Shown here in pieces: positions 3,477 to 51,188 of a stretch of DNA of 64,000 nucleotides. Source of the stretch: an uncultured Jatrophihabitans sp. (lineage in GTDB: Bacteria > Actinomycetota > Actinomycetes > Mycobacteriales > Jatrophihabitantaceae); NCBI RefSeq assembly GCF_964252635.1, contig NZ_CAXUNP010000009.1:40548-104547 (forward strand), in the 5' to 3' direction. Positions within the stretch are counted from its first letter, which is position 1, and each line of letters starts with the position of its first letter. The notes under the pieces were generated by a model. That model was not told where the DNA came from. It saw only the letters and a list, made by a program, of their open reading frames with translations, and did not search any database. The position numbers and the translations under genes were made by a program.

Positions 3477-4550
3477 TCAGTCGAACAACGACAACTGCTC
3501 CACCGCGGGCCGCTTCGGCGGCAGCGGTGGCAGTCGTCGGGGCGCACCTGTCCGCCACCAGCGCCGCTCGCCGGGAGCATCCGCATAGGCCGGTGCCGGT
3601 GTGACGGTCTCGCCGGCGTCGGCCGGTTCGACGTCGGCCAGCACACGCACCGCGTTCGCCGCCGACCAGGTCAGGTTGTGCTCGCGGAAGACCGCGGCGA
3701 CCGGGTCCGCGGCCAAGGGCAGCACACCCACTCCCCCAGCCAGCTCGAGGCCGAGCTCGACGTCGCGATGCATCGTCATGACCTGGCAGTTGAGCTCCCA
3801 CGCCTCGCGGGCGCCGTCACAGGCCATCCTGCGGGCGGCGCCCTGACCCAGCCGGGCCGTCACCGCATCCAGGTCGTCGAACGCGGCACGCGCCGAGCCG
3901 AACTCACCCAGCAGGCGTGCCGCCAGCTTGGGCCCGACCCCGCGGACGCCGGGCAGGTTGTCCGACGGGTCACCACGCAGCGCCGCGTAGTCGCGGTACT
4001 GGTGCGGGTGCACGCCGAGCAGCAGCACTAGACGTTCGGCGGTCATGGTGGGTGAGGCGTCGACCCCGCCGTTGATGATGCGCAGCACGTGCGTGTGCTC
4101 GTCGATGAGCGCGAAGGCGTCACGGTCCGAGGTCACCACGACCGTCCGGGCGCCGTGGCGGGGTGCGTACTCGGCACACGAGGCCAGGACGTCGTCGGCC
4201 TCCAGACCGGCGGGCACGACCACCGCGACGCCGATCCGGCGCAACACGTCGACGGCCTCCGCCAGCTGCTCCACGAGGGTGTCGAGCTTGTCGACACGGT
4301 TGGCCTTGTAACCCGGCCACCGTTCGCGGCGCGTCGAACGGTCGGGGTCGTCGAAGCCGACCACGACCACGGCCGGGCGGACCCGCTCGACGGCCGCCAC
4401 CAGCTGCGTCAGCAGCCCCCGGACCGCCCACGACGCCTGCCCGGTCTGGGCCTGGGCGTGGAAGCTGCGGTGGACGAGGGAGTTGCCGTCGACGGCGAGG
4501 ACGACCGGCTGCTGCACGTCGACCACTCTGCCACCTGCCGCCGACGACAT
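3477..4550 (-). CDS. 5'-3' exonuclease / flap endonuclease (FEN/Pol I N-terminal domain family) with C-terminal QLSLF tail
   Basis: LAVDGNSLVHRSFHA, acidic metal-site clusters (GFDD, TSDRD), H3TH motif LRGDPSDNLPGVRGVGPKLAARLL. The protein ends ...EQLSLFD. ATG 4550 lies 3 nt after the ppm1 stop. Confidence 0.85.
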   Translation of the reverse strand: MSSAAGGRVVDVQQPVVLAVDGNSLVHRSFHAQAQTGQASWAVRGLLTQLVAAVERVRPAVVVVGFDDPDRSTRRERWPGYKANRVDKLDTLVEQLAEAVDVLRRIGVAVVVPAGLEADDVLASCAEYAPRHGARTVVVTSDRDAFALIDEHTHVLRIINGGVDASPTMTAERLVLLLGVHPHQYRDYAALRGDPSDNLPGVRGVGPKLAARLLGEFGSARAAFDDLDAVTARLGQGAARRMACDGAREAWELNCQVMTMHRDVELGLELAGGVGVLPLAADPVAAVFREHNLTWSAANAVRVLADVEPADAGETVTPAPAYADAPGERRWWRTGAPRRLPPLPPKRPAVEQLSLFD

Positions 4551-9635: not shown

Positions 9636-10534
9636 CCTTGATGCTCATCGACGCCGCCAACCTGTACTTCCGCGCGTTCCACGCCATCCCCGACACCGTC
9701 ACCGCGCCGGACGGCCGCCCCGTGAACGCGATCCGCGGCTTCCTGGACATGTCGGCCTCCCTCATCGACAAGCGGCGTCCGTCCCGCTGGGTGGCCTGCC
9801 TCGACCTGGACTGGCGACCCGCGTTCCGCGTCGAGCTCGTCCCGACCTACAAGGCGCACCGGGTGGCACCCGACGGCGGCGAGGAGGTTCCCGACCTGCT
9901 GAGCCCGCAGGTGCCGCTCCTGCTCCAGGTGCTGACGGCGTTCGGTCTCGCGTGCGCCGGCGCCGAGGGTTTCGAGGCCGACGACGTCATGGCGGCCCTG
10001 GCGCGTCGCGACCGCGACCGGGTGGAGGTCGTCAGCGGCGACCGCGACATGCTGGCCCTGGCCGACGACCGCGTCACCGTGCTGTACACCGGCAAGGGGA
10101 TCGCCAAGATGGAGGACATGACGCCGGCCGCGGTGCGGACGAAGTACGGCATCCCGGCCGAGAACTACGCCGACTTCGCGGTGCTGCGCGGCGACCCCAG
10201 CGACGGCCTGCCGGGCGTCGCCGGCGTCGGCGAGAAGACCGCCGCCGCGCTGGTGTCCCGCTTCGGCACGATCGAGCAGATCGTGGCCGCGGCGACCGCC
10301 GGCGACGACGGGTTCCCGGCCGGCGCCGCGGCCAAGGTGCGGGCCGCGACCGACTACCTCGCGAAGGCGCCGTCAGCCGTCCGCCTGCGCAGCGACGCCC
10401 CGGTGCCGGAGGTTGACGACGACCTGCCCGCCCGTCCGCGAGATGCGGACCGGCTTGCCGAGCTGGCGACCGAGCTCGGCCTCGAGAGCTCGGTCGAGCG
10501 CCTGACGAAGGCAGTGGCCGCCGCGCGCGGCTGA
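9632..10534 (+). CDS. 5'-3' exonuclease (second FEN-like paralog)
   Basis: MTLMLIDAANLYFRAFHA, VVSGDRDM, H3TH LRGDPSDGLPGVAGVGEKTAAALV. Only the last 300 codons of ORF 8333-10534 look like protein. Confidence 0.85.
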   Translation: MTLMLIDAANLYFRAFHAIPDTVTAPDGRPVNAIRGFLDMSASLIDKRRPSRWVACLDLDWRPAFRVELVPTYKAHRVAPDGGEEVPDLLSPQVPLLLQVLTAFGLACAGAEGFEADDVMAALARRDRDRVEVVSGDRDMLALADDRVTVLYTGKGIAKMEDMTPAAVRTKYGIPAENYADFAVLRGDPSDGLPGVAGVGEKTAAALVSRFGTIEQIVAAATAGDDGFPAGAAAKVRAATDYLAKAPSAVRLRSDAPVPEVDDDLPARPRDADRLAELATELGLESSVERLTKAVAAARG

Positions 10535-10548
10535 CGCAGACCCGACCG

Positions 10549-11742
10549 TCAGCTCGTCGGCTGCACCGTGTACTTGGCGTCGCTGGTCTTGGTGATGGTC
10601 ACCCGGTAGGTCGCCTTGGCCGAGGTCGTGCACGTGAAGGTGGCGTCCTTCTTCACTGTGATGTCCTTGCCGTTGTTGCACGAGACGCCGCTGCGGCTGA
10701 ACGTGCTGGCGATGTACTTCTCGACCGCGGTGTGGCTGAGCTTCTTGTCGGCGAAGGGTTTGAACACCGCGAAGATCAGCACCAGCGCGACGGCGACCAC
10801 CACGACGACGGCGACGAGGGCGATCAGCAGGCCCTTGCGACTCTTGCGCTCGGGCTGCGGCGTCGACGGGTAGGCACCGCCCTGGCCGTAGCCCTGCTGG
10901 CCGTAGCCCTGCTGGCCGTAGCCCTGCTGGCCGTAGGACTGCTGGCCCTGCCCGTAGTTCTGCTGGCCGTAGGACTGCTGGCCCTGCCCGTAGGACAGTT
11001 GGCCGTAGCCCTGCTGGCCCTGCCCGTAGGACTGTCGGCCGTAGCCCTGCTGGCCGTAGGACTGCTGGCCGTAGCCCTGCTGACCCTGTCCGTAGGACGG
11101 CTGGCCCTGGCCGTAGGACTGCGCACCATGGTTCTGCTGGGCCTGCTGGCCGTAGGACTGCTGGCCGAACGAGCCGCCGGCGGACAGCGCCGTCGTCTCG
11201 TGTCCAGAGTCCGGCCCGGCCGCGTCGCTCGGCTTGCTCCACGGGCTCGGCGCCGGGCCGGACCCCTGGGGTGACGGGCTCGGCCGCTGCTGGCTGCCCT
11301 GGTCCCCCCAGGAAGGCTGCTGCTGACCCTGCTGCTGATCGCCCTGCTGCCCCCAGGAGGGCTGCTGCGCATTCTGCTGCTGGCCGGCCTGCTGGCCGCC
11401 CTGCTGCCCGTAGGACTGCTGGCCGCTCTGCTGCCCGTAGGACTGCTGACCGCCCTGCTGCCCGTACGACGGCTGCTGGGCAGCCTGCTGCTGGCCGAAC
11501 GGCGGCGGCGTGCCCTGGCCGGCGGCCTGGCCACCCGGAGTCGGATCACCGGCCAGTCGCGGCACCACCCGCGTCGCGTGGTCGTCGTCCTCCGCACCGG
11601 CATCGGACCGTGCGTCGGGCTCCTCGCGGGGGTTCTGTGCCTCGGGCGCAGGTGGCGGCGGCGGCCACGACTGCTGCTGCGGCGGCGTGTTCTGCGGCCA
11701 CTGCTGGCCGGGGTTGCCGCCCTGGTTGCTCTGGTCGGACAT
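10549..11742 (-). CDS. Membrane-anchored protein: Gln/Gly/Ser/Tyr-rich low-complexity N-terminus, one TM helix, C-terminal DUF4333-like domain
   Basis: ATG 11742 ([10 protein letters not shown]...). About 18 [S/G/N]-Y-G-Q repeats. TM helix [25 protein letters not shown]-terminal about 85 aa with two Cys ([20 protein letters not shown]) resembles actinobacterial DUF4333. The upstream part of ORF 10549-12825 overlaps helY and is rejected. Confidence 0.75.
10866..11175. repeat. Coding tandem repeats (15-bp GGCCGTAGCCCTGCT-type units and variants)
   Basis: Read directly, e.g. three consecutive perfect units at about 10884-10930. They encode the YGQQG/SYGQG repeats on the minus strand. Confidence 0.8.
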
Positions 11743-11876: not shown

Positions 11877-14615
11877 TCAGGGCTGCATGCTCTGCGCGAC
11901 CACGCCGTGCCTGATGGCCGCGGCGGCGCTGCGGGCGACGGCGCCCACCGTGGACGCGCCGCCGTTCGGGCCGGGCGCGGCGGCGAGCTGCTCGAGCAGG
12001 TCCAGCACCTGCTTGCACCAGCGGATGAAGTCTCCGGCCGACAGCTCGTTGCCGCGTTCGGCAGCCACCCCGAGTACGCGGTCGAGACGCTCCTGCCGGG
12101 CCCAGCGGTACATGGCCCAGACGAAGCCGAGCTGCGGCTCGCGGCTGGGCGGCAGCTGCCGCTGCTCCTCGACGTCCGCGAGGTCGGCCCAGATGCGTTC
12201 GGTGGCGGCCAGGGCGTCGCGCACCGCCGAGCTGGGCATGGCGTCGACCAGCAACTCCTCGCGGCGCGCCTCGTACACCAGCGACGAGGCCACCGCGGCG
12301 AGCTCGGCCGGGTCGAGCCCGTCCCAGACCCCGGCGCGCAGACACTCGGCGGTGAGCAGGTCGGTCTCGGACCAGATGCGGGCCAGCTGCCGCCCGGCCG
12401 GCGTCGTCTCGTCGCCGTCGAGGTAGCCGCGCTCGTCGAGCAGGTCGCAGATCCGGTCGAACGTGCGGCCCAGCGAGCCGGTGCGGCCGTCGATGCGCCG
12501 GCGCAGCCCCTCGTTCTCGCGGGCCAGGCGGCTGTACCGCTCGCCCCAGCGGGCGTGCTGCTCGCGGTCGGTGCACTGGTGGCACGGGTGCGCCCGGAGC
12601 GCGCGTCGCAGCCGCTGGACCTCGGCGTCGCCGTCGCCGGTCACGTCCGCGCCCGCGCGCCGGGGCCGTCGCGGGACGTCGTCCGGCAGGTCCAGCGCAC
12701 GCAGGCTCGACGCGAGGTCCCGACGCTCCTGCGGTGAGCGGTGGTTGACGTGCTTGGGCACGCGCACCGAGCCCAGCACGTCCACTGCCATGGGGAAGTC
12801 GACGAGCGACAACCGACCCGACCACCGGCCCTCGGTGACCACCAGCGGACGCGGATCGTCGCGCGGGGCGACCCCCGGGTCCAGAACCACCGCGAGCCCG
12901 GCGCGCCGACCGCGCGGCACCCGGATGACGTCCCCGCGCCGCAGCGCCTCCAGCGAGGCGGCGATCGCTCCACGCCGCTCCCGTGCACCCTCGCGGGCGA
13001 GCAGGGTCTCGCGCTCGCCGAGTCGCCGACGCAGGTCGGCGTACTCGGCGAAGTCACCGAGGTGGCACTGCATCTGCGCCGCATGCTGGCGCAGGGTCTC
13101 CTCGTTGCGCCGGATCTGGGCGAGCAGCCCGGCCACCCCGCGGTCGGCCTGGAACTGCGCGAACGACGCCTCGAGCAGGGTGCGGGCCTGGCCACGCCCC
13201 ATCTGCCCGACGAGGTTGACGGCCATGTTGTACGACGGCCGGAACGACGAGCGCAGCGGATAGGTGCGGTTGGACGCGAGCCCGGCGACCCGCTGCGGAT
13301 CGACGTCCGGCGACCAGACGACGACGGCGTGCCCCTCGACGTCGATGCCGCGGCGACCGGCCCGGCCGGTCAGCTGGGTGTACTCCCCCGGCGTGACGTC
13401 GGCGTGCGACTCACCGTTGAACTTCGTGAGCCGTTCGAGCACGACTGTACGGGCCGGCATGTTGATGCCCAGCGCCAACGTCTCGGTGGCGAACACGGCG
13501 CGGACCAGGCCGCGGACGAACAGTTCCTCGACGGTCTGCTTGAACGCCGGGATGAGCCCTGCGTGGTGGGCGGCCACGCCCCGACGCAACCCGTCGCGCC
13601 ACTCCCAGTAACCCAGCACCTCGAGGTCCTCGCGAGGCACCTCGGCGGTGAGTTCGTCGACAACCTCGTCGATCTCCGTGCGCTCGTCCTCGTCGGTGAG
13701 CCACAGCCCCGCCCACACGCACTGCTTGGCCGCGGCGTCGCACCCGGCCCGGCTGAAGATGAAGGTGATTGCCGGGAGCAGGCCCTCGCGGTCGAGGCGG
13801 GTGATGACGTCCGGTCGGTGCGGCGGTCGCCAGCCGCGTCCCCCGCGCCCGCCCCGCCGGTTGGGCACCGGGTCGACGTAGCGGGTGCGGTCGGCGACCT
13901 GGCGCAGCAGCTGCCCGTCGACGGAACTGCCGTCGGGCCCGAACAGGTCGAACATCCGCGTGCCGACCAGGACGTGCTGCCACAGCGGCACCGGCCGCTC
14001 CTCGTGCACGATCACCCTCGTCTCGCCCCGCACCGACACCAGCCACTCGCCGAACTCCTCGGCGTTGCTGACCGTGGCCGACAGCGAGATCAGCCGCACC
14101 GCGGCCGGCAGGTGGATGATCACTTCCTCCCACACGGCGCCGCGGAACCGGTCGCCGAGGTAGTGCACCTCGTCCATGACGACGTACCCGAGCCCGGCCA
14201 GCGCGGGGCTGCCGACGTAGAGCATGTTGCGCAGCACCTCGGTGGTCATCACGACCACGGGAGCGTCCGGGTTGATCGCGGTGTCGCCGGTCAGCAGCCC
14301 CACCTGTGCGGTGCCGTACCGGTCGACGAGGTCGTTGTACTTCTGGTTCGACAGCGCCTTGATCGGCGTCGTGTAGAAGCACTTCTGGTGCGCGGCGAGG
14401 GCCAGGTGAACGCCGAACTCCCCGACGACGGTCTTGCCGGCACCCGTGGGGGCGCAGACGAGCACCGAGTACCCGTCCTCCAGCGCCTCGCAGCCCTGCT
14501 CCTGGAACGGGTCGAGCGCGAACGGCAGTTCGGCGCGGAAGTCGACGAGGATCGGGCGCCCCCGGCGGCGCCGGGACGCGGCGTACCGCTCACTCGGCGA
14601 CGACATGCCCTCCAC
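11877..14615 (-). CDS. helY: Ski2-like DEAD/DEAH-box ATP-dependent RNA helicase HelY
   Basis: Walker [16 protein letters not shown] box (VMDEVHYL), SAT (SLSATV), helicase C motifs ([16 protein letters not shown]), long C-terminal Ski2-type region. The first ATG is at 14606. Confidence 0.9.
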
Positions 14616-16785: not shown

Positions 16786-17741
16786 CACCCCACCGGGCCC
16801 GCGACGGCACGCAGCCGCTCGACGACCGCGGCGGCGAGGTCGGCGGGCTCGATCACCCGCGCTGCGGCGCCGCTGCCGGCCACCAACCGGGCCAGCCAGC
16901 CGGTGTCGGTGAAGTCCACCGTCAGCACCCCGTCGCGCTCGGAGCGGGCGATGCGGCGCAACTGGCCGGCGCCGCCCTCGCTGACCTGGATGCGCGCGAC
17001 CCGGTCGCGCTCGGGTTGGGCGCCGGCCACCATGTCGAGCAGGTCGACGTGGTCGGGACGCTCGAACGCGCCGGGCCCGCCCACCGTCTGGACGCTGCCG
17101 ATGATGCGGCCGAGCCGGAAGCTCCGCGGCTGGTCGCGGTCACGGTCGAAGCCGGCCACGTACCAGCGCCGGCGCCAGGACAGCACGCCCCACGGCTCGA
17201 GGGTGCGGGTCTCGGGCGCCGAAGACCCGGCCTTGGTGTAGTCGAACCGGACGACGGTGGCCGAGCGGGACGCGGCCAGCAGCGGCGGCAGCGCCGGGTC
17301 GCTGGCGTCGAGCTGGGGCACTGCTCCCGGCGCGTCGGCGGCGCGGACGTCGGTACCCGCCGCGCGCAGCTTGATCAGCGCCTGCCGGGCCGGCTCGCCG
17401 AGCGTGGCCGACTGCCAGAGCCGGGCGGCCAGGCCCACGGCCGCCGCTTCAGCCGCGTCGAACTCGATGGCCGGCAACTCGTAGTCGCGGCGCCGGATGC
17501 GGTACCCGTCCTCGGCATCGAAGTGGCTGTTGCGGCCGGTCTCGAGCGGGATGCCGAGGTCGCGCAGCTCGGCCTTGTCGCGCTCGAACATCCGCTTGAA
17601 CGCCTCGTCCGTCGCCTTCGCACCGTCGGCGGCCTCGTAGCCGGGCACGGCGTCGCGGATGCGCTCGGCGGTGAGGAACTGGCGGGTCGAGAGCAGGCAG
17701 ATGACCAGGTTCACGAGTCGTTCCGCGCGCCGGGCTGCCAT
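16785..17741 (-). CDS. pafB: Proteasome accessory factor PafB (HTH-WYL regulator)
   Basis: MAARRAERLVNLVICLLSTRQFLTAERIRDAV... HTH, WYL-like segment (LSWRRRWYVAGFD). ATG 17741 is the internal Met of ORF 16785-17861. Confidence 0.85.
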   Translation of the reverse strand: MAARRAERLVNLVICLLSTRQFLTAERIRDAVPGYEAADGAKATDEAFKRMFERDKAELRDLGIPLETGRNSHFDAEDGYRIRRRDYELPAIEFDAAEAAAVGLAARLWQSATLGEPARQALIKLRAAGTDVRAADAPGAVPQLDASDPALPPLLAASRSATVVRFDYTKAGSSAPETRTLEPWGVLSWRRRWYVAGFDRDRDQPRSFRLGRIIGSVQTVGGPGAFERPDHVDLLDMVAGAQPERDRVARIQVSEGGAGQLRRIARSERDGVLTVDFTDTGWLARLVAGSGAAARVIEPADLAAAVVERLRAVAGPVG

Positions 17742-31550: not shown

Positions 31551-34436
<2,886 letters not shown>

Positions 34437-34459
34437 GACGCTCCGGAAGGACGGCTCGA

Positions 34460-34610
34460 CGCGGTCACCGAAGGGCGACCGGTCCCCGTCTGTCGGGAGG
34501 TGCCCCTTCAGACTGGCCTCGTCCGCTCGGTCCTGGTGCCTGAGAGGTTCCGGGGAGGTTGCCCCTTCGGCGCCGGCTCGCAACAGTGCGGTCGGCTCTC
34601 CCGAGCGTGG
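34460..34610 (-). promoter_or_regulatory. Glycine riboswitch in the gcvP leader
   Basis: The minus strand reads CGGGAGAGCCGAC...GGCGCCGAAGGGGCAACCTCC...CCTCTCAGGCACCAGGACCG (a canonical aptamer), followed by a weaker second element ...GTCTGAAGGGGCACCTCCCGAC.... The boundaries are approximate. Confidence 0.8.
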
Positions 34611-34718
34611 TCGTCAGCCGTCTCCGACGGTACCAGCGTCGGCGGCCGGAGGGCGGGTCACGACGCTCCCGAGGGGTCGAATGTGACCCAGATCAGGCGG
34701 GTCGGTCGAACACGCCGG

Positions 34719-39921: not shown

Positions 39922-40542
39922 TCAGGTCCGTGCCGGCGTCGCGACGGGACGCCGGATCAGTCCGGTGACCTGCACGAAGTACACCGCTCCCGCCCACACG
40001 TACAGCGCGCTGCCCCAGATGGTGAAACCCCAGGCGATGGCCTTGGCGACGTACGCGGTCTGGTTGTCATAGGTGCCGAGCAGCAGCAGCGGGAACGCGT
40101 AGAGCAGGCAGAACGTCGCCGCCTTGCCGAGGTAGTGGACGGCGGGCGGCCCGTAGCCGGCCCTGCGCAGCAGGGGCAGGGTGAGGCCGAGTACGAGGTC
40201 CCGGCCGACGATCACGATCGCGAGCCACAGCGGCATGATGTGGCGCAGGACGAGGCCCACGAGGGTGGCCAGGATGTAGAGCCGGTCGGCGAGCGGGTCC
40301 AGCAGGGCTCCGAGGCGGCTGGTCTGGTTCAGGGCCCGGGCCAGCACGCCGTCGAGCCAGTCGGTGAAGCCCGACACGGCCAGCACGACCACGGCCCAGG
40401 CGTTCTCGTGCGGGCCGAGGACCAGGTACAGGAACAGCGGGACACCGAACAGGCGCAGGATGCTCAGCGCGTTCGGGATCGTCCACAACCGGTCGGGTTC
40501 GAGGTCCGGTTGGTCTCCGGTGACCGGGACGGTCTCGCTCAT
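39922..40542 (-). CDS. pgsA: CDP-alcohol phosphatidyltransferase (PgsA-type)
   Basis: DWLDGVLAR...GALLDPLADR (D-G-x2-A-R...D-x3-D). ATG 40542 with SD GGGGAGG. Confidence 0.9.
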   Translation of the reverse strand: MSETVPVTGDQPDLEPDRLWTIPNALSILRLFGVPLFLYLVLGPHENAWAVVVLAVSGFTDWLDGVLARALNQTSRLGALLDPLADRLYILATLVGLVLRHIMPLWLAIVIVGRDLVLGLTLPLLRRAGYGPPAVHYLGKAATFCLLYAFPLLLLGTYDNQTAYVAKAIAWGFTIWGSALYVWAGAVYFVQVTGLIRRPVATPART

Positions 40543-40565
40543 AGAGACCTCCCCGTAACCCACAA

Positions 40566-40611
40566 TCTGTCGGGACGACAGGATTTGAACCTGCGACCCC
40601 CTGACCCCCAG
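40566..40611 (-). repeat. Orphan copy of the 3' part of tRNA-Pro (distal att repeat)
   Basis: 46/46 identical to 43612-43657. Covers the anticodon loop through the acceptor 3' end plus 4 nt. No matching 5' half (no CGGGACG acceptor strand), so it is not a functional tRNA. Confidence 0.9.
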
Positions 40612-40716
40612 GCAACGGAACCCCGTCCATGGGTGGCCACCGACGACACCCTATCCCGCGAACGCGGGCCTCCATGTCATCGGTAGACACCCGACGACAG
40701 GGGTGCAATCGCAGCC

Positions 40717-40739
40717 GTTGCTACATGCGCTGCTACACG
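40717..40739 (+). repeat. TGCTACA-N5-TGCTACA(CG) motif pair, left arm of the islet
   Basis: GTTGCTACAtgcgcTGCTACACG; same motif and 12-bp phasing as at 43522-43544. Confidence 0.75.
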
Positions 40740-40816
40740 AAGCGGCCTCGGCCGGTGCGCTAACACCGGACCGAGGCCTTGACCGAACCAACCTGCCTTC
40801 TCAGGAGGAACGACCC

Positions 40817-41038
40817 ATGCGAGACCGTACCGACGTGCCTGCCGGCTCCCCGGCTGCAGGCACGCAGCAGCTTTGCGCACCTTGGTGCGCAAACCAACAT
40901 CACCTCACGTTCTTCGGCGACGACGACCCCACCTGCTACGGCGGAGAACTGCACGTCCCGCTCAGCCTCGAGCCGCAACAGCTGGTTGAGGCGCTGCAGC
41001 TGGTGCTCGGCCAGCTCGCAGGCGGGGGCGTCCGTTGA
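40817..41038 (+). CDS. Hypothetical small protein (73 aa) with CAPWC..H motif
   Basis: SD AGGAGG 7 nt upstream of ATG 40817. Its stop overlaps the TTG start of the next gene. No family assigned with confidence. Confidence 0.5.
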   Translation: MRDRTDVPAGSPAAGTQQLCAPWCANQHHLTFFGDDDPTCYGGELHVPLSLEPQQLVEALQLVLGQLAGGGVR

Positions 41039-41562
41039 TCGCCGGAAGGCGCTGCCATGGCCCGGGTGGCTGGGTTGACCGGCCAGCGGCCGGAACGTCG
41101 CCTTGGGACTGGTATCGGGCCCAAGCTGAGCGCGACGGGGTGGCGATCCGCGTCGCCGAGCTTAGGAGCGGCAGATGGGCCGAAGCGAGCTGGACGGCCA
41201 CCGGCCCCGTCATCTGGTTCTCGCCCAAGTTGGGGCCGCGTGATCGTCGCTGCGCGCTCGCTCACGAACTTCACCACCTGGCCCTGGGAGGCATCTGCAG
41301 GTCCTTCTGCCTGCGGAACGAAGTGAAAGTGCGGCGGGCCACAGCTCGGTGGCTGCTACCAGCTATCGAACCCGTCGGCGCCCTGCTGCGAGCTGGGACG
41401 GTGGTCGATGCCGCAGCCCTGCTGAACGTTGTCCCGCCCATCGTGTGGGACAGGCTCGGCTGCGCTACAGAACGGGAGACGAACCATCTGCGAGAAGTAC
41501 TCGGCGACGACCGCCTATGCAGTGTGACGCCGCCGCGCTGGGACGCGGTTGGCGGCAACTAG
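41035..41562 (+). CDS. ImmA/IrrE-like zinc metallopeptidase (DUF955-type)
   Basis: HExxH in RRCALAHELHHLALGG followed by E..V.RRATARWLLP, the usual ImmA/IrrE downstream pattern. TTG start 41035 (uncertain). Confidence 0.6.
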   Translation: MIAGRRCHGPGGWVDRPAAGTSPWDWYRAQAERDGVAIRVAELRSGRWAEASWTATGPVIWFSPKLGPRDRRCALAHELHHLALGGICRSFCLRNEVKVRRATARWLLPAIEPVGALLRAGTVVDAAALLNVVPPIVWDRLGCATERETNHLREVLGDDRLCSVTPPRWDAVGGN

Positions 41563-41585
41563 GTCACGCTCGGTCCTCAACTGAC

Positions 41586-41619
41586 GCTGCCCCGGCTGGT
41601 TCAATCCGGCCGGGGCAGC
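41586..41619 (+). terminator. Intrinsic-terminator-like hairpin after the ImmA-like gene
   Basis: Perfect 11-bp stem GCTGCCCCGGC / GCCGGGGCAGC, 12-nt loop, followed by GTTATGT. Confidence 0.5.
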
Positions 41620-41633
41620 GTTATGTCGCAACC

Positions 41634-41936
41634 ATGACGCTTCCACCTGAACCCACAGGCGCCCTAGAGGCGCTGCTCAGCGAGCTTCGTCAACTGAATG
41701 CCACCCTGGCGCGCCGACCGACCCCGTCCGCGGTACGCGGGCCTGCAGTCGGGCAGGACAAGGCGCTGCTGGACAGCCCGTGGCTCGTCGTCGGCGAGGT
41801 GCAGGCCTACGCCCGCGCCGGCAAGCGTGAGGTGCTCGCCGCCCTCGCTGACGGCAGCCTCCGCGGCTACCAGGCACGGCCAAACGGTCGGTGGCGCATC
41901 CACCGCGACGACGTCGACGCGTGGCTGCGAGGTTAG
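41634..41936 (+). CDS. Excisionase-family helix-turn-helix protein (Xis/HTH_17-like)
   Basis: The C-terminal half LVVGEVQAYARAGKREVLAALADGSLRGYQARPNGRWRIHRDDVDAWL matches the MerR-superfamily excisionase pattern. ATG 41634. Confidence 0.6.
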   Translation: MTLPPEPTGALEALLSELRQLNATLARRPTPSAVRGPAVGQDKALLDSPWLVVGEVQAYARAGKREVLAALADGSLRGYQARPNGRWRIHRDDVDAWLRG

Positions 41937-41982
41937 GTTCGGGGCCCTTCCACTGTTCCTTCCTCCGGCCGTCAGAAACGAG

Positions 41983-42016
41983 AACGCCCGCCTAGCCGGA
42001 GGACTAGACGGGCGTT
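41983..42016. terminator. Bidirectional intrinsic terminator between convergent islet genes
   Basis: 13-position stem AACGCCCGCCTAG / CTAGACGGGCGTT (one mismatch), 8-nt loop, T-rich run on both strands (TTTATAT downstream on plus; CGTTTCTG on minus). Confidence 0.6.
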
Positions 42017-42031
42017 CGAGCTTTATATGCC

Positions 42032-42313
42032 TCAGGAGTTGACGGCACCGCCCCACGACGAGTTGTAGATGATGCGGCTGCCGTCGGTGGGCCCGCCGTT
42101 CACGATGCCCGCGACGACGTTACGAGCGGAGTTCATTGGCGTCGCTTGCGCGCCCGGCAGCGCACACTCTCGAAGTAGGGCGGCGACGGGCTTGCCCTCG
42201 ACCTTGGCGCGCTCCTCGATGGACCGCAGCTCGTCAGACGTCATGCGCACGCTTACCACCTCATTTCGGCGACGCTTCTCCGACTTGCCTCTTGGCTGGT
42301 GATCGATTGCCAT
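42032..42313 (-). CDS. Ribbon-helix-helix (MobC/CopG-like) DNA-binding protein
   Basis: KRRRNEVVSVRMTSDELRSIEERAKVEGKPVAALLRECAL is the basic patch plus beta-strand plus two-helix pattern of RHH/MobC N-termini. ATG 42313. Confidence 0.55.
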   Translation of the reverse strand: MAIDHQPRGKSEKRRRNEVVSVRMTSDELRSIEERAKVEGKPVAALLRECALPGAQATPMNSARNVVAGIVNGGPTDGSRIIYNSSWGGAVNS

Positions 42314-42370
42314 CAGATCCTTGGTCCTCTCGATGTCTGGTGACTTTGGTCCCGCAGTCCTCCATCTTCA

Positions 42371-42493
42371 CGGACGAAACAGGCCGTCCGCCAGTGGAAG
42401 GCGCGTAATCCACGAAGTCGTGATGGTAAACGTCGTCTTTACGACGGAAGTTCCGTCTACTGCTATGGTATGACCGTCAGCTAGGACGGAAAA
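42371..42493. promoter_or_regulatory. Divergent control region with multiple GACGGAA / TTCCGTC half-sites
   Basis: Inverted repeat CGGACG-N8-CGTCCG (42371-42390), hairpin CGTCGT-cttt-ACGACG (42431-42446), palindrome GACGGAAgTTCCGTC (42443-42457), GACGGAAAA (42485-42493). Lies between the RHH gene and the 159-aa gene. Confidence 0.5.
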
Positions 42494-42509
42494 CATCGAG
42501 GAGGACGTC

Positions 42510-42989
42510 ATGAAGGTATCGGCGACGCTGTGCAACCACGTGGAGGCTCTGAACAACCTGCTTTACGTGTCGGGAGGAGGCATTGACCGGTCCATCGTCC
42601 CCCCCGGCGCCCCATCGCCCTACGGCGTGACCCTTGGCCTGGGCATCATCATCACAGTCCCGTGGCAGCAGACCAATCAACAGCACAAGCTGAACATTGG
42701 CCTGGTCGATGCTGACGGGCAGCCAGTCCTAGTACCCACGGGCCCCGACGTCATCAGTCCGTTGAAGGTCGAAGCTGAGTTCAACGTTGGGCGCCCCCCG
42801 GGGCTTGCGACCGGCGAAGATCAAAACGTCGCCATGGCAGTAAATTTTCCCGGCATTCCGCTGCCGAGCCTGGGGCGCTACCGGTTCTTGGTAGAACTCG
42901 ACGGATCGCTGGAGGAGGAGATCTCTTACCAGGTTGTGTCGTTGAACCAGACCATGGGCATCGGACCGAGCGCCCTTCCGCGATTCTGA
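42510..42989 (+). CDS. Hypothetical protein, 159 aa (islet cargo gene 1)
   Basis: Strong SD GAGGAGG 6 nt before ATG 42510; lower-GC codon usage. Motifs YVSGGGI, VPW..TN..H, FNVGRPPGL, GRYRF recall a widespread uncharacterised actinobacterial family that I cannot name reliably. Confidence 0.65.
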   Translation: MKVSATLCNHVEALNNLLYVSGGGIDRSIVPPGAPSPYGVTLGLGIIITVPWQQTNQQHKLNIGLVDADGQPVLVPTGPDVISPLKVEAEFNVGRPPGLATGEDQNVAMAVNFPGIPLPSLGRYRFLVELDGSLEEEISYQVVSLNQTMGIGPSALPRF

Positions 42990-43025
42990 CCTGTTCTACG
43001 CGGATACGGCAGGGAGGCTGCGACG

Positions 43026-43439
43026 GTGGAACGGGTGCGGTTCATCGCACGGTGCACCAGATCAGGCTTGAACGCCGTCACAAGGGTGTGGCAGTGGGTC
43101 CTGAGCGTCCTGAGTTTGCTGTTGGTCAGCGGCATCGTCCTTCAGAACCACCTGCCGCATACCGGACCGGTTTGGCTCAAGGCCAGTGTGCTGGTGGCCC
43201 TCGCCGTTGCCGTACTAGTCGAGGGCGCGTTCCAAGAGTCGACAGTGGCGCCACCTCCCACCTTGCCCGCTGGGCCTCCAATTCACATGCAAGCGAACGT
43301 GATCAACTACAACGTGATCGATGCCAGCAGCGCGCAGAACGTGTCGATGCCCCCGTCGCTACAAGACCAGGAACCTCCACCCGACCCCGTGCAAGAAGAT
43401 GACAACGCGCAGTACGGCGGCCCTGCCAGCTCTGGCTGA
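43026..43439 (+). CDS. Hypothetical membrane protein, 137 aa (islet cargo gene 2)
   Basis: GTG 43026 with SD GGGAGG. Two hydrophobic helices (WVLSVLSLLLVSGIVL; ASVLVALAVAVLVEGAF) and a Pro/Gln/Asp-rich tail. Confidence 0.55.
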   Translation: MERVRFIARCTRSGLNAVTRVWQWVLSVLSLLLVSGIVLQNHLPHTGPVWLKASVLVALAVAVLVEGAFQESTVAPPPTLPAGPPIHMQANVINYNVIDASSAQNVSMPPSLQDQEPPPDPVQEDDNAQYGGPASSG

Positions 43440-43521
43440 CTCCTATTGGACATTCCACCGGCAGGTGTGCGCCGCTGGTTTTCCGCTGCTCGGGTGCGCG
43501 GCGTGCGCGTGATGAACGAGC

Positions 43522-43544
43522 GTTGCTACACCGGTTGCTACACG
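43522..43544 (+). repeat. TGCTACA-N5-TGCTACA(CG) motif pair, tRNA-proximal arm of the islet
   Basis: GTTGCTACAccggtTGCTACACG, about 70 bp from the tRNA-proximal att repeat. Confidence 0.75.
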
Positions 43545-43615
43545 CAGGCCCGCCGAGCACGTATCGGCCGGCGGGCCCACGCCCTCCGTGCCCGGTTTCC
43601 CGGGCCTTCGTTCTG

Positions 43616-43689
43616 TCGGGACGACAGGATTTGAACCTGCGACCCCCTGACCCCCAGTCAGGTGCGCTACCAAGCTGCGCCACGTCCCG
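43616..43689 (-). tRNA. tRNA-Pro (anticodon GGG)
   Basis: The minus strand reads CGGGACGTGGCGCAGCTTGGTAGCGCACCTGACTGGGGGTCAGGGGGTCGCAGGTTCAAATCCTGTCGTCCCGA. 7-bp acceptor stem, anticodon arm CCTGA-CTGGGGG-TCAGG, T-loop GGTTCAAATCC. CCA is not encoded. Confidence 0.95.
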
Positions 43690-43726: not shown

Positions 43727-45082
43727 CTACTTCGTCCTGCGCTCGCGCACCTTCACCGAGATCTCGATCGGCGTGCCGGTGAAGTCGAAGTCCTCGCGCA
43801 GGCGCCGCTCGAGGAAGCGCCGGTAGCCGGCCTCGAGGAATCCGGTCGTGAACAGCACGAAACGCGGGGGCCGCGTGTCGGCCTGCGTCGCGAACAGCAC
43901 GCGCGGGGCCCGGCCGCCGCGCGCCGGGGGCGGGGTCCCCGCGACGACGTCGGTCAGCCAGGTGTTGAGCCGGCCGGTCGACACGCGCCGGTCCCAGGAC
44001 TCCAGAGAGGTGCGCAGGCTGCCGGCGAGCTTCTCGACGGCGCGCCCGGTGCGGGCCGACACGTTGATTCGCGGGGCCCACGCGACCCTGGCCAGATCGC
44101 GTTCGATCTCGCGCTCCAGCTGGTCACGACGGTCCTCGTCGACCAGGTCCCACTTGTTGAAGGCGATGACCAGCGCGCGGCCGGCGTCGACGACCTCGGC
44201 GATGACCCGCTGGTCCTGCTCGCTGAGCCGCTCCGAGGCGTCCAGCAGCACGACCGCGACCTCGGCGGCCTCGATCGCCGCGGCGGTGCGCAGACTGGCG
44301 TAGTACTCCATGCCGCTGGCCTGGTGGACGCGACGGCGCAGCCCGGCGGTGTCGACGAAGCGCCACACCTCGCCGCCGAGCTCGACCAGGCTGTCGACCG
44401 GGTCGATGGTCGTGCCGGCGACCGAGTCGACGACCGAGCGCTCGTCGTGGGTCAGCTTGTTCAGCAGGCTGGACTTGCCGACGTTGGGACGCCCGACGAG
44501 GGCGACGCGGCGCGGACCGCCCTCGATGTCGGTGTCGGCGGGCGCGTCGGGCAACCGGTCGAGCACCGCGTCGAGCAGGTCCCCGCTGCCGCGACCGTGC
44601 AGCCCGCTGACCGGGAACGGCTCGCCGAGCCCGAGTGACCAGAGCTCGGCGGTGTCGGGTTCGAGGCGCTCGTCGTCGACCTTGGTGACGGCCAGCACGA
44701 CGGGTCGCTTCGCCCGGCGCAGCGTGCGGGCCACCGTCAGGTCGGTGTCGGTGGCGCCGGTGCGCCCGTCGACCACGAACAGCACGAGGTCGGCGGTGGT
44801 CACCGCGCGTTCCGCCTGGGCGGACACCATGGCCTGCAGCCCGCGTGCGTCCGGTTCCCAGCCGCCGGTGTCGACCAGGGTGAAGCGTCGGCCGTTCCAC
44901 AGCGCGTCGTAGGCGATCCGGTCGCGGGTGACTCCGGGGACGTCCTGCACGACGGCCTCGCGGCGGCCCAGGATGCGGTTGACCAACGTCGATTTGCCGA
45001 CGTTGGGTCGGCCCACGACGGCGACGACCGGAGCGGCCGGGACGTCCTCGTCGGTGGGGAGGTCGTCAGGCGGCTCGGTCAT
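43727..45082 (-). CDS. der: Ribosome-associated GTPase Der (EngA)
   Basis: Two tandem G domains ([12 protein letters not shown]; [12 protein letters not shown]; DTGG/DTAG) plus a KH-like C-terminus. Confidence 0.95.
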
Positions 45083-50228: not shown

Positions 50229-51188
50229 CTACCGTGCGCGGGGGTGGGCCGTGGCGTACACCTCGCGCAGCCGGTCGACCGTCACGAGGGTGTAGATCTG
50301 GGTCGTCGTCACCGAGGCGTGTCCCAGCAGTTCCTGGACCACCCGCACGTCCGCCCCGCCCTCCAAGAGGTGAGTGGCGAAGGAGTGCCGCAGCGTGTGC
50401 GGCGACAGCCCGTCGGCCAGCCCGGCCCGTTCGGCCGCGGTCCGCAGCACCACCCACGCCGATTGGCGCGACAGCGGCCCGCCCCGCGAGTTCAGGAAGA
50501 CCCGCGACGTGCCGCGGCCCTCCGCGGCCAACACCGGCCTGGCCTGCACCAGGTAGGCCGACAGCGCGGTGGCCGCGAACGAGCCGACCGGCACCCGGCG
50601 CTCCTTGCCACCCTTGCCGCGCAGCAGCACCGTGCCGTCCGCCAGGTCCAGCTCGTCGACGTCCAGCCCGACCGCCTCGGAGATCCGCGCGCCGGTGCCG
50701 TACAGCAGCTCCAACAGGGCCCGGTCGCGCAGCGCCAGGGCGGTACGGGCATAGCCGGCGGCCTCCAGCAGCCGCTCGACCTCCTCGACCGTGATCGCCT
50801 TGGGCAGTCGTCGGGGCGGCGCCGCCGGCCGCACCTCACGCGACACGTCCACCTCGACCAGCCCCTCGCGCAGCGCGAACCGGTGCAGGCCACGCACGGC
50901 CACGACGGCCCGGGCCGCCGAGGACGCGGACAGCGGCGGGTGGTCGGCGTCGCCCTCGCGCAGGTAGGACAGGAAGCCGCCGACCGTGGCCGCCGTGACG
51001 TCGTCCAGCCTCGCCACGCCGTGGGCCCCGAGGTAGTGCGCGTAACGCTCGAGGTCGCGTCGGTAGGAGCTCAGGGTGTTGGCGGCGACGCCGCGCTCGA
51101 CCGCGAGATGGTCCAGGAAGCCGCGCGTGACGACGATCGGCGCACGCCGATCGCCGGCCCGTGCCGCACCGGTCCTGGTCGAGGTCAT
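50229..51188 (-). CDS. xerD: Tyrosine recombinase XerD
   Basis: [48 protein letters not shown] (R..HxxR..Y). Conserved position beside nudix-pyrG. Confidence 0.85.

Follow-up and report, generated by a model that had tools for sequence, protein, structure and literature searches.

A stretch of 64,000 nucleotides (nt) from contig NZ_CAXUNP010000009.1 of an uncultured Jatrophihabitans sp., hereafter the window, carries a 3,000-bp islet at a tRNA-Pro(GGG) gene. The islet has indeed been inserted site-specifically into the gene's 3' end, in a Jatrophihabitans-like actinomycete. It is rather likely to be the integrase-less remnant of an integrative element resembling a temperate actinophage, of the cis-mobilizable element (CIME) type, with both attL and attR kept. 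Genomic islets of this sort are known and fairly unremarkable. New are the tandem pairs of arm-type sites at both ends of the islet, which match the attP of an uncultured phage in sequence and spacing. An earlier note, made from the letters of this DNA alone, had left the choice between a decayed stump of an element and a minimal satellite that borrows an integrase. Both readings stand, and our analysis leans to the stump.

The intact tRNA-Pro(GGG) gene was located on the minus strand at 43615-43689 by ARAGORN and at 43616-43689 by Rfam. A repeat finder returned the pair 40566-40614 and 43612-43660, identical at 48 of 49 positions and perfect over the first 46 nt. The proximal, attL-type core (43612-43657, minus strand) lies inside and just past the intact tRNA. 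It is matched at 46 of 46 positions by the distal, attR-type core (40566-40611, minus strand), which has pgsA and the chromosome to its left and the islet to its right. The enclosed DNA, 40612-43611, measures exactly 3,000 bp. The distal copy spans tRNA positions 33-75, from the anticodon loop to the end, plus 3 nt past the 3' end, and the 5' half is missing. A third copy of the 46-mer was not present within the window, even with up to 14 mismatches allowed. At the junctions, the right end of the islet reads GGGCCTTCGT and its left start GCAACGGAACC; the adjoining letters are CCCACAA in the chromosome on the pgsA side and TCAGGTGCGCTACC on the tRNA side. The islet DNA is foreign in composition. 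Its G+C content is 0.650 compared to 0.720 for the window, and the G+C content at third codon positions of its six open reading frames (ORFs) is 0.75-0.80 compared to 0.92-0.96 in the flanking host genes. The intact tRNA, the perfect partial copy without the 5' half, the 3,000-bp spacing and the lower G+C content described in the earlier note were all confirmed.

The neighbourhood der, tRNA-Pro, pgsA is conserved, and the islet interrupts it, as had been proposed. In the closer relatives L003 and L006-L010 the three genes are contiguous, and since pgsA follows directly after the tRNA, the site is empty there. Further empty sites, each with the identical 46-mer, were found at the metagenome loci L084, L086, L090 and L093. 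Over 78-79 nt the tRNA-Pro itself shows 100% identity with its counterparts at the metagenome loci L088, L089, L091, L096 and L100. Homologues of the islet proteins were encoded at none of 80 der loci and at none of 20 att loci, and exact-protein look-ups with the DUF6941, helix-turn-helix (HTH) and Der proteins matched no contig. An old locus fixed throughout the genus, which the earlier note had named as the finding that would speak against a mobile insertion, is contradicted by the empty sites in L003 and L006-L010 and by the foreign composition. The Der protein was at most 90% identical to entries of the genome collection, the best being metagenome-assembled genomes of Jatrophihabitans and Jatrophihabitantaceae, and the HTH and DUF6941 proteins of the islet are on record at NCBI under 'uncultured Jatrophihabitans sp.'.

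The same site is used by many other elements. A scan of metagenome contigs for the exact 46-mer yielded 20 loci of three classes: chromosome, core and tRNA (the empty arrangement, 4 loci), element, core and tRNA (6 loci), and element, core and element, which represents either an attP or the junction of a tandem (10 loci). The distal flanks are of five or more kinds, most of which leave tRNA identity at the same end of the 46-mer, ...CCCCCAG; in the distal class of L087, L098 and L102 the match to the tRNA continues for 7 further nt. The core is adjoined by tyrosine integrases of two unrelated families: L085, L087 and L096 have the first, while the second is that of L088, L092, L099 and L101, and family-2 elements carry arm pairs of the GGTCCCCAA type. 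In L098 and L102 the proximal end of one element is joined to the distal end of another, and these mixed junctions indicate that tandem accretion occurs at the tRNA-Pro site. In both cases it is the distal end of an L087-type element that is joined via the 46-mer. The L087/L098 element (23-12106 in L087; metagenomes Ga0302311 and Ga0302314) has its own tyrosine integrase beside the identical 46-mer and carries a cluster of DUF2397, DUF2398 and a 1908-aa SMC-SbcC-like gene, which may be a defence cluster. Tyrosine-integrase mycobacteriophages generally have an attB that overlaps a tRNA gene (PMC9262239). When the whole islet was compared with phage and plasmid collections, it matched through the 46-bp tRNA core only. 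The GenBank Gilesvirus genomes contain a core that is 92% identical over 46 nt and has the same ...CCCCCAG boundary, with int and an annotated recombination directionality factor (RDF) beside it. The anticodon-loop site of tRNA-Pro(GGG) is accordingly a crowded hotspot, common to several unrelated integrase families and to Gilesvirus.

Some elements at this hotspot are visibly decayed. In the remnants L053, L068 and L077 the repeats begin at the same anticodon-loop position as in the islet. The islet of Umezawaea sp. (L053), 4.3 kb long and likewise at this tRNA, has an integrase reduced to a stub of 104 aa; its repeat nevertheless has a single mismatch, and neither arm pair has been lost. Tandem TTGGGGACC pairs stand at its two ends (13531-13551 and 17628-17648); TTGGGGACC is the reverse complement of the GGTCCCCAA-type repeat of family 2, which ties the repeat to the family-2 integrases. 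In Gordonia soli (L077) the integrase ORF is shortened to 249 aa and lacks the N-terminal part, and the repeat again has one mismatch. The 7.5-kb islet of Gordonia sp. OPL2 (L068, 11812-19296), likewise at tRNA-Pro(GGG), has a repeat that is perfect over a 30-nt probe; it contains a capsid-family fragment, a DUF4145 gene and an EcoRI-type restriction-modification pair, and no integrase was detected in it. These three resemble the islet of the window in that 3.7-7.5 kb lie between the tRNA and the partial copy and in that the integrase is truncated, not detected or shortened. They differ from it in their unrelated genes and in the integrase fragment that is still seen in two of them but not in the islet of the window. 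Since decayed islets retain near-perfect repeats, and one of them its arm pairs too, intact cis sites are no sign of activity. The earlier note had counted the intact state of the repeats, ORFs and terminators in favour of an element that still functions; this argument therefore loses its force, all the more because a BrnT-like toxin is missing and the two islet proteins that were looked up are singletons (see below). As a practical rule, perfect att repeats together with intact arm sites do not prove that an islet is active.

The resemblance to a phage attachment site extends beyond the core. Two pairs of tandem arm-type sites on the plus strand, with the unit consensus YTGCTACACG, stand at the inner flanks of the islet: the P'-arm pair GTTGCTACATGCGCTGCTACACG at 40717-40739, 151 nt from the core start, and the P-arm pair GTTGCTACACCGGTTGCTACACG at 43522-43544, which ends 67 nt before the core. 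The paired motif occurs in the window only at these two positions, with 0 occurrences expected. A pattern scan of viral contigs for the paired motif gave four matches (L108, L109, L110 and L111). One of them, L109 (IMGVR_UViG_3300042934_000727, also L112), is a 70-kb contig of an uncultured phage, of similar G+C content (0.67). Arm units of the same type there flank, on both sides, a partial core of a different tRNA, probably tRNA-Thr(CGU) as judged from its letters. The distance from the end of the P units to the core is 66 nt in L109 and 67 nt in the islet, and the distance from the core start to the P' units is 152 nt and 151 nt, respectively. A hairpin directly precedes the core in both; that of the islet (43590-43605, plus strand) is terminator-like and has a counterpart in the Gilesvirus attP as well. 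The P' pair of L109 overlaps the stop codon of int, an intact gene for a tyrosine integrase of 341 aa, beyond which follows a 67-aa HTH_17 gene of Xis-like type; capsid genes are located on the opposite side. A pattern describing the arm geometry matched L109 alone among the viral contigs.

The motif, its spacing and its adjacency to int in L109 are the reasons to read the islet motifs as putative arm-binding sites of an L109-type integrase. The islet would then keep all parts of an attP, divided between attL and attR. It is like L109 in the arm consensus, in the arm-core distances on both sides and in the HTH_17 gene beyond the int position. It is unlike L109, which has the core of another tRNA, an intact 341-aa integrase, and capsid and early genes. 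The slot of the islet that corresponds to the L109 int, abutting the P' arm, contains neither an integrase nor a trace of one. A G+C-rich inverted repeat of putative function (40746-40787) lies between the P' arm and the first gene, and at the corresponding position of L109 the int gene begins. Besides the HTH_17 protein, no islet protein had a homologue in L109. A protein scan of viral contigs for relatives of the L109 integrase returned only the query itself, the exact 46-mer had no match in the viral contigs, and no helper or parent combining YTGCTACACG arm sites with a tRNA-Pro core was found in these scans. The arm motif becomes linked to a class of uncultured-phage integrases.

The three other matches to the paired motif are of a different nature. 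L108 and L110 share one contig of 172 kb with a G+C content of about 0.49 (IMGVR_UViG_3300035070_002905), in which the pair GTTGCTACA...TGCTACACG occurs twice (3579-3601 and 12735-12757), each time with extra TGCTACA/TGTAGCA units nearby. The contig of L111 has a G+C content of about 0.42. No tRNA gene, att-like core or integrase match was found at L108, L110 or L111, and the L108/L110 motif is probably an unrelated, repeated regulatory motif.

The absence of a recombinase from the islet was examined by several routes. A six-frame Pfam search of 40612-43611 at E<=1 returned only M78, HTH_17, DUF6941 and RHH-type families along with one non-significant VIR_N match; families of recombinases, transposases, Rep and FtsK/Tra proteins were not among the results. 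Neither tblastn of the islet with nine diverse tyrosine integrases nor a hidden Markov model (HMM) built from these nine and run without filters gave any match. The statement of the earlier note that no recombinase, Rep or Tra protein is encoded was in this way upheld, and a hidden recombinase, which would have overturned its proposal, did not come to light. Functions in replication, packaging or transfer and cos/pac sites were not found in the islet either by Pfam, PHROG or six-frame scans. The sole recombinase-like gene of the window, at 50229-51188 on the minus strand, is matched by phage integrase queries at 32% identity; it stands within a core-gene cluster, which suggests a XerC/D-type protein rather than an islet integrase.

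The left half of the islet appears, from its gene content, to resemble the control modules of temperate actinophages. It begins with orf1 (40818-41038, plus strand; 73 aa, no family match), located behind the sequence AGGAGGA. The stop codon of orf1 overlaps the start of the next gene (TTGA), which encodes an ImmA/IrrE-like metallopeptidase with a HELHH motif (41035-41562, plus strand). Its Pfam M78 match was below the cutoff (E 1e-3) and its match to the metalloprotease family phrog_87 had an E value of 7e-7. The protein is 51.5% identical over 132 aa (E 2e-33) to an ORF of the phage-like contig L081, and it had no match among GenBank phages. A search of 5.8 billion clusters matched nothing, not even the protein itself, though neighbouring islet proteins are recorded at NCBI; the L081 homologue is likewise absent from called genes. 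In the source record, the ImmA-like gene possibly lacks an annotation or is listed as a pseudogene. A 16-nt inverted repeat with 94% complementarity (41584-41621), possibly an operator or attenuator, separates it from the gene for the excisionase-family HTH_17 protein WP_375482873.1 (41634-41936, plus strand; PF12728, 6e-7; TIGR01764, 2.3e-6). By its family this protein is a candidate RDF or regulator. Its C-terminal part is 64-75% identical to HTH_17 genes of the phage contigs L081-L083, and it shares 31% identity with the Xis-like gene next to int in L109. In L081 the ImmA homologue is followed by the HTH_17 gene, adjoining a tape-measure-like gene. The L082 region, with int, an M78 peptidase, an HTH_3 repressor, HTH_17, Dam, RecT, WhiB and RusA, is a typical temperate actinophage layout. 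The possibility that orf1 and the ImmA-like gene are artefacts, read antisense to a dead int gene, was rejected because the ImmA-like ORF is conserved as a protein in L081 and the opposite strand is without int signal.

The right half is a portable cassette of a ribbon-helix-helix (RHH) and a DUF6941 gene. Convergent to the HTH_17 gene, and separated from it by a hairpin with a 16-bp stem and a T tail (terminator scan, 41982-42017), is a gene for a NikA-like or antitoxin-like RHH protein (42032-42313, minus strand; PF21983, 2.5e-8). It diverges from the gene of the DUF6941 protein WP_375482877.1 (42510-42989, plus strand; PF22091, 5e-19; 78 homologues), which represents cargo. The last gene, at 43026-43439 on the plus strand, has no family; its 137-aa product has two hydrophobic segments and is a predicted membrane protein. 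The gene content listed in the earlier note (an excisionase-like HTH, an ImmA/IrrE-like peptidase and an RHH protein) and its two hairpin terminators with T tails, the one just mentioned and that before the core, were both found again. The AlphaFold model of the DUF6941 protein is a predicted beta-sandwich (pLDDT 92). A fold search of the PDB gave generic beta-sandwiches only (TM 0.25-0.44) and no informative structural relative, and a literature search returned no paper that mentions DUF6941. The islet HTH and DUF6941 proteins were each a singleton among ~15 billion sequences.

Related cassettes were located at L104 (1017-3812), L105 (7288-8483), L106 (7246-8477) and L107 (1473-2704), where they adjoin transposases or a trio of tyrosine recombinases. 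Three independent contigs show DUF6941 and a homologous RHH gene as a divergent pair, with transposases or integrases next to it. The islet RHH protein is 48-58% identical to the DUF6941-paired RHH genes of L104 and L105, and 30% identical in L106. L104 has an rve transposase inserted between these two genes. In L105 and L107, two of the three related contexts, a BrnT-like toxin gene stands beside the RHH gene, between it and DUF6941. The islet has no trace of such a toxin by tblastn with the L105 and L107 toxins, and its RHH-DUF6941 gap is 196 bp; the toxin gene directly upstream of the RHH antitoxin that defines a BrnT/BrnA-type pair is missing. We also considered that the NikA-like RHH protein might act in a relaxosome or at oriT. 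Since a BrnT-like toxin is the partner of its homologues, it is better read as an antitoxin-like regulator, and it gives no evidence of mobilization. PADLOC made no convincing defence-system assignment in the islet.

These observations suggest the following course of events. An element would have entered through an L109-type tyrosine integrase that binds YTGCTACACG arm sites, with strand exchange within the anticodon loop. The int gene and the rest of the phage genome would later have been deleted. What was left over may be a regulatory or excision module (orf1, the ImmA-like gene and the excisionase-family HTH gene) and a cargo cassette of an RHH regulator or orphan antitoxin, DUF6941 and a small membrane protein. 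Such an islet could neither excise nor integrate by itself; excision, or accretion with an incoming element, would need an integrase supplied in trans that recognizes the arm sites, and the islet HTH_17 protein might assist as directionality factor. With both att sites complete and no recombinase of its own, the islet is most likely a stranded remnant that would be mobile only with borrowed help.

Several points weigh against the remnant reading. All six ORFs are open, the TTGA overlap of orf1 and the ImmA-like gene represents translational coupling, neither the terminators nor the arm pairs are damaged, and the repeats match perfectly. To arrive at the islet from a phage with the L109 layout takes two or more clean deletions that spare everything else. 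No element with the same arms and the tRNA-Pro core was found, so that the parent is deduced from an attP with a different core, and the family support for the ImmA-like gene is weak. The class itself is a further point, since CIMEs were defined for derivatives of ICEs (integrative conjugative elements) and IMEs (integrative mobilizable elements) of Firmicutes (PMC5704250), and the islet looks phage-derived.

The intact features can also be taken as those of an adapted, minimal cis-mobilizable satellite, which would have a complete attP and its own directionality factor and regulator, would borrow the integrase of an L109-type phage and would spread by transduction or with its helper. We consider this unlikely. 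The complete arm sites on both sides with the exact phage geometry, the perfect repeats, the six ORFs with Shine-Dalgarno sites, translational coupling and terminators, and the retained excisionase-family gene are in its favour, as is the busy att hotspot with elements in tandem (L098, L102), which makes integrases acting in trans plausible. However, demonstrably decayed islets retain the same features. Replication, packaging, cos/pac and transfer functions are all missing, the cargo cassette has no toxin, and the scans brought up no helper in which matching arm sites accompany a tRNA-Pro core. Nor did a second copy or a relative turn up: each of the two proteins looked up occurs just once in 15 billion sequences, and there were 0 homologues in 100 loci.

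The most specific form of this proposal, a 3-kb working satellite of a temperate actinophage that has given up its own integrase, has a full attP (core and four arm sites), its own directionality factor and an ImmA-type switch, and mimics the arm specificity of the helper whose integrase excises and re-inserts it, appears if anything less credible still. If true, it would be an unusually small integrase-parasitic element and, for site-specific recombination, the integrase-parasitic counterpart of non-autonomous transposable elements. Phage satellite families (P4-like, PICI, PLE, PICMI) encode their own integrase as well as replication or packaging-hijack functions. The islet is like them in being small and integrated, in its phage-related regulators and in its dependence on a helper; it is unlike them in that no integrase and no genes for replication or redirection of packaging were found in any of its frames.

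It is decidedly improbable that the islet is a chimera from a tandem array, in which att x att recombination removed most of the DNA and left halves of different elements. Tandem junctions at the exact 46-mer do exist in metagenomes (L098/L102 compared to L087/L100), and the two halves differ in G+C content (0.69 vs 0.615) and in their affinities, a phage module on one side and the portable RHH/DUF6941 cassette on the other. Yet neither an internal att copy nor a remnant of one was found at the junction of the halves, and att x att recombination alone cannot make an internal fusion. The arm-site type is moreover the same in both arms, which argues for a single attP at the two ends. For want of an internal att copy we rejected a composite of two accreted units. 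Finally, a non-mobile origin, with the partial tRNA copy arising by local duplication and the 3 kb being ordinary lineage-specific DNA, has the absence of an integrase and nothing else in its favour and is effectively excluded, as the repeat boundary is the recombination boundary of many integrase-bearing elements and of Gilesvirus, and the arm sites, the foreign composition and the empty sites in relatives all stand against it.

The islet is flanked by two host genes on the minus strand. Beyond the tRNA lies der/engA (43727-45082; profile match), and on the distal side a pgsA-like CDP-alcohol phosphatidyltransferase gene (39922-40542; PF01066, 9e-40; start and Shine-Dalgarno site read from the letters). 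The probable ATG of pgsA (40542) is separated from the att copy by only 23 nt, with the Shine-Dalgarno sequence CCTCC (plus-strand letters) at 40548-40552. The left arm of the islet has taken the place of the native upstream region of pgsA, the tRNA, and transcription of pgsA must therefore start in the islet or read through it. For pgsA, a consensus scan revealed no sigma-70-like promoter.

Two other features of the window are far from the islet. A glycine riboswitch aptamer (34518-34613, minus strand; Rfam RF00504, 58.5 bits) was detected at the 5' end of a 1010-aa ORF (31551-34583, minus strand), presumably the glycine cleavage P protein. The region 10861-11500 consists of dense 15/21-nt tandem repeats resembling CTGCTGGCCGTAGCC in at least 11 copies, whose minus-strand reading would give a Gln/Gly/Tyr-rich repetitive protein. 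These repeats adjoin a tRNA-Ser(GCU) gene (10220-10311), and no duplicated tRNA-Ser was seen.

Among known systems, the attachment sites of Gilesvirus (Giles, HH92) are a close likeness of the cis sites. The core of the islet extends from the anticodon loop to the tRNA's 3' end, as in attachment sites of the Giles/L109 type, with the boundary of HH92, and putative tandem arm-type sites are present in both the P and the P' arm. HH92 has the same layout, with two tandem repeats of ATTGGGGTCAAA per arm, and a hairpin likewise stands before its core. Giles differs in having int and an RDF beside attP and in its arm repeat, which is ATTGGGGTCAAA and not YTGCTACACG; the islet has no int of its own next to the attachment site.

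As to its genes, an element of the pSAM2 type, i.e. an actinomycete ICE, comprises Int/Xis, Rep and an FtsK-like Tra protein, and the islet has only the Xis-like HTH protein. CIMEs, which are listed in ICEberg 2.0 (PMC6323972), are flanked by attL and attR, have no genes for integration or transfer and can be mobilized via the integrase of another element, typically after accretion (PMC5704250). Like the CIMEs of the Streptococcus ICE and IME systems, the islet is bounded, at the 3' end of its target gene, by attL and attR, here the 46-bp cores, each with an arm pair on its inner flank. It lacks recombinase and transfer genes and keeps an excisionase-like gene. Unlike these CIMEs, which derive from conjugative or mobilizable elements of Firmicutes, the islet belongs to an actinomycete, its module is phage-like, its relatives are phage contigs, it has no conjugation or relaxase genes, and its cis-mobilization is putative. 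Its arm-site geometry and the picture of the hotspot are instructive, if unsurprising to a specialist. The islet is a clean and well-delimited example of the formation of tRNA-linked islets in actinomycetes, in which the cis apparatus of core, arm sites and terminator hairpin outlives the recombinase and leaves small cargo units that may be reactivated in trans.

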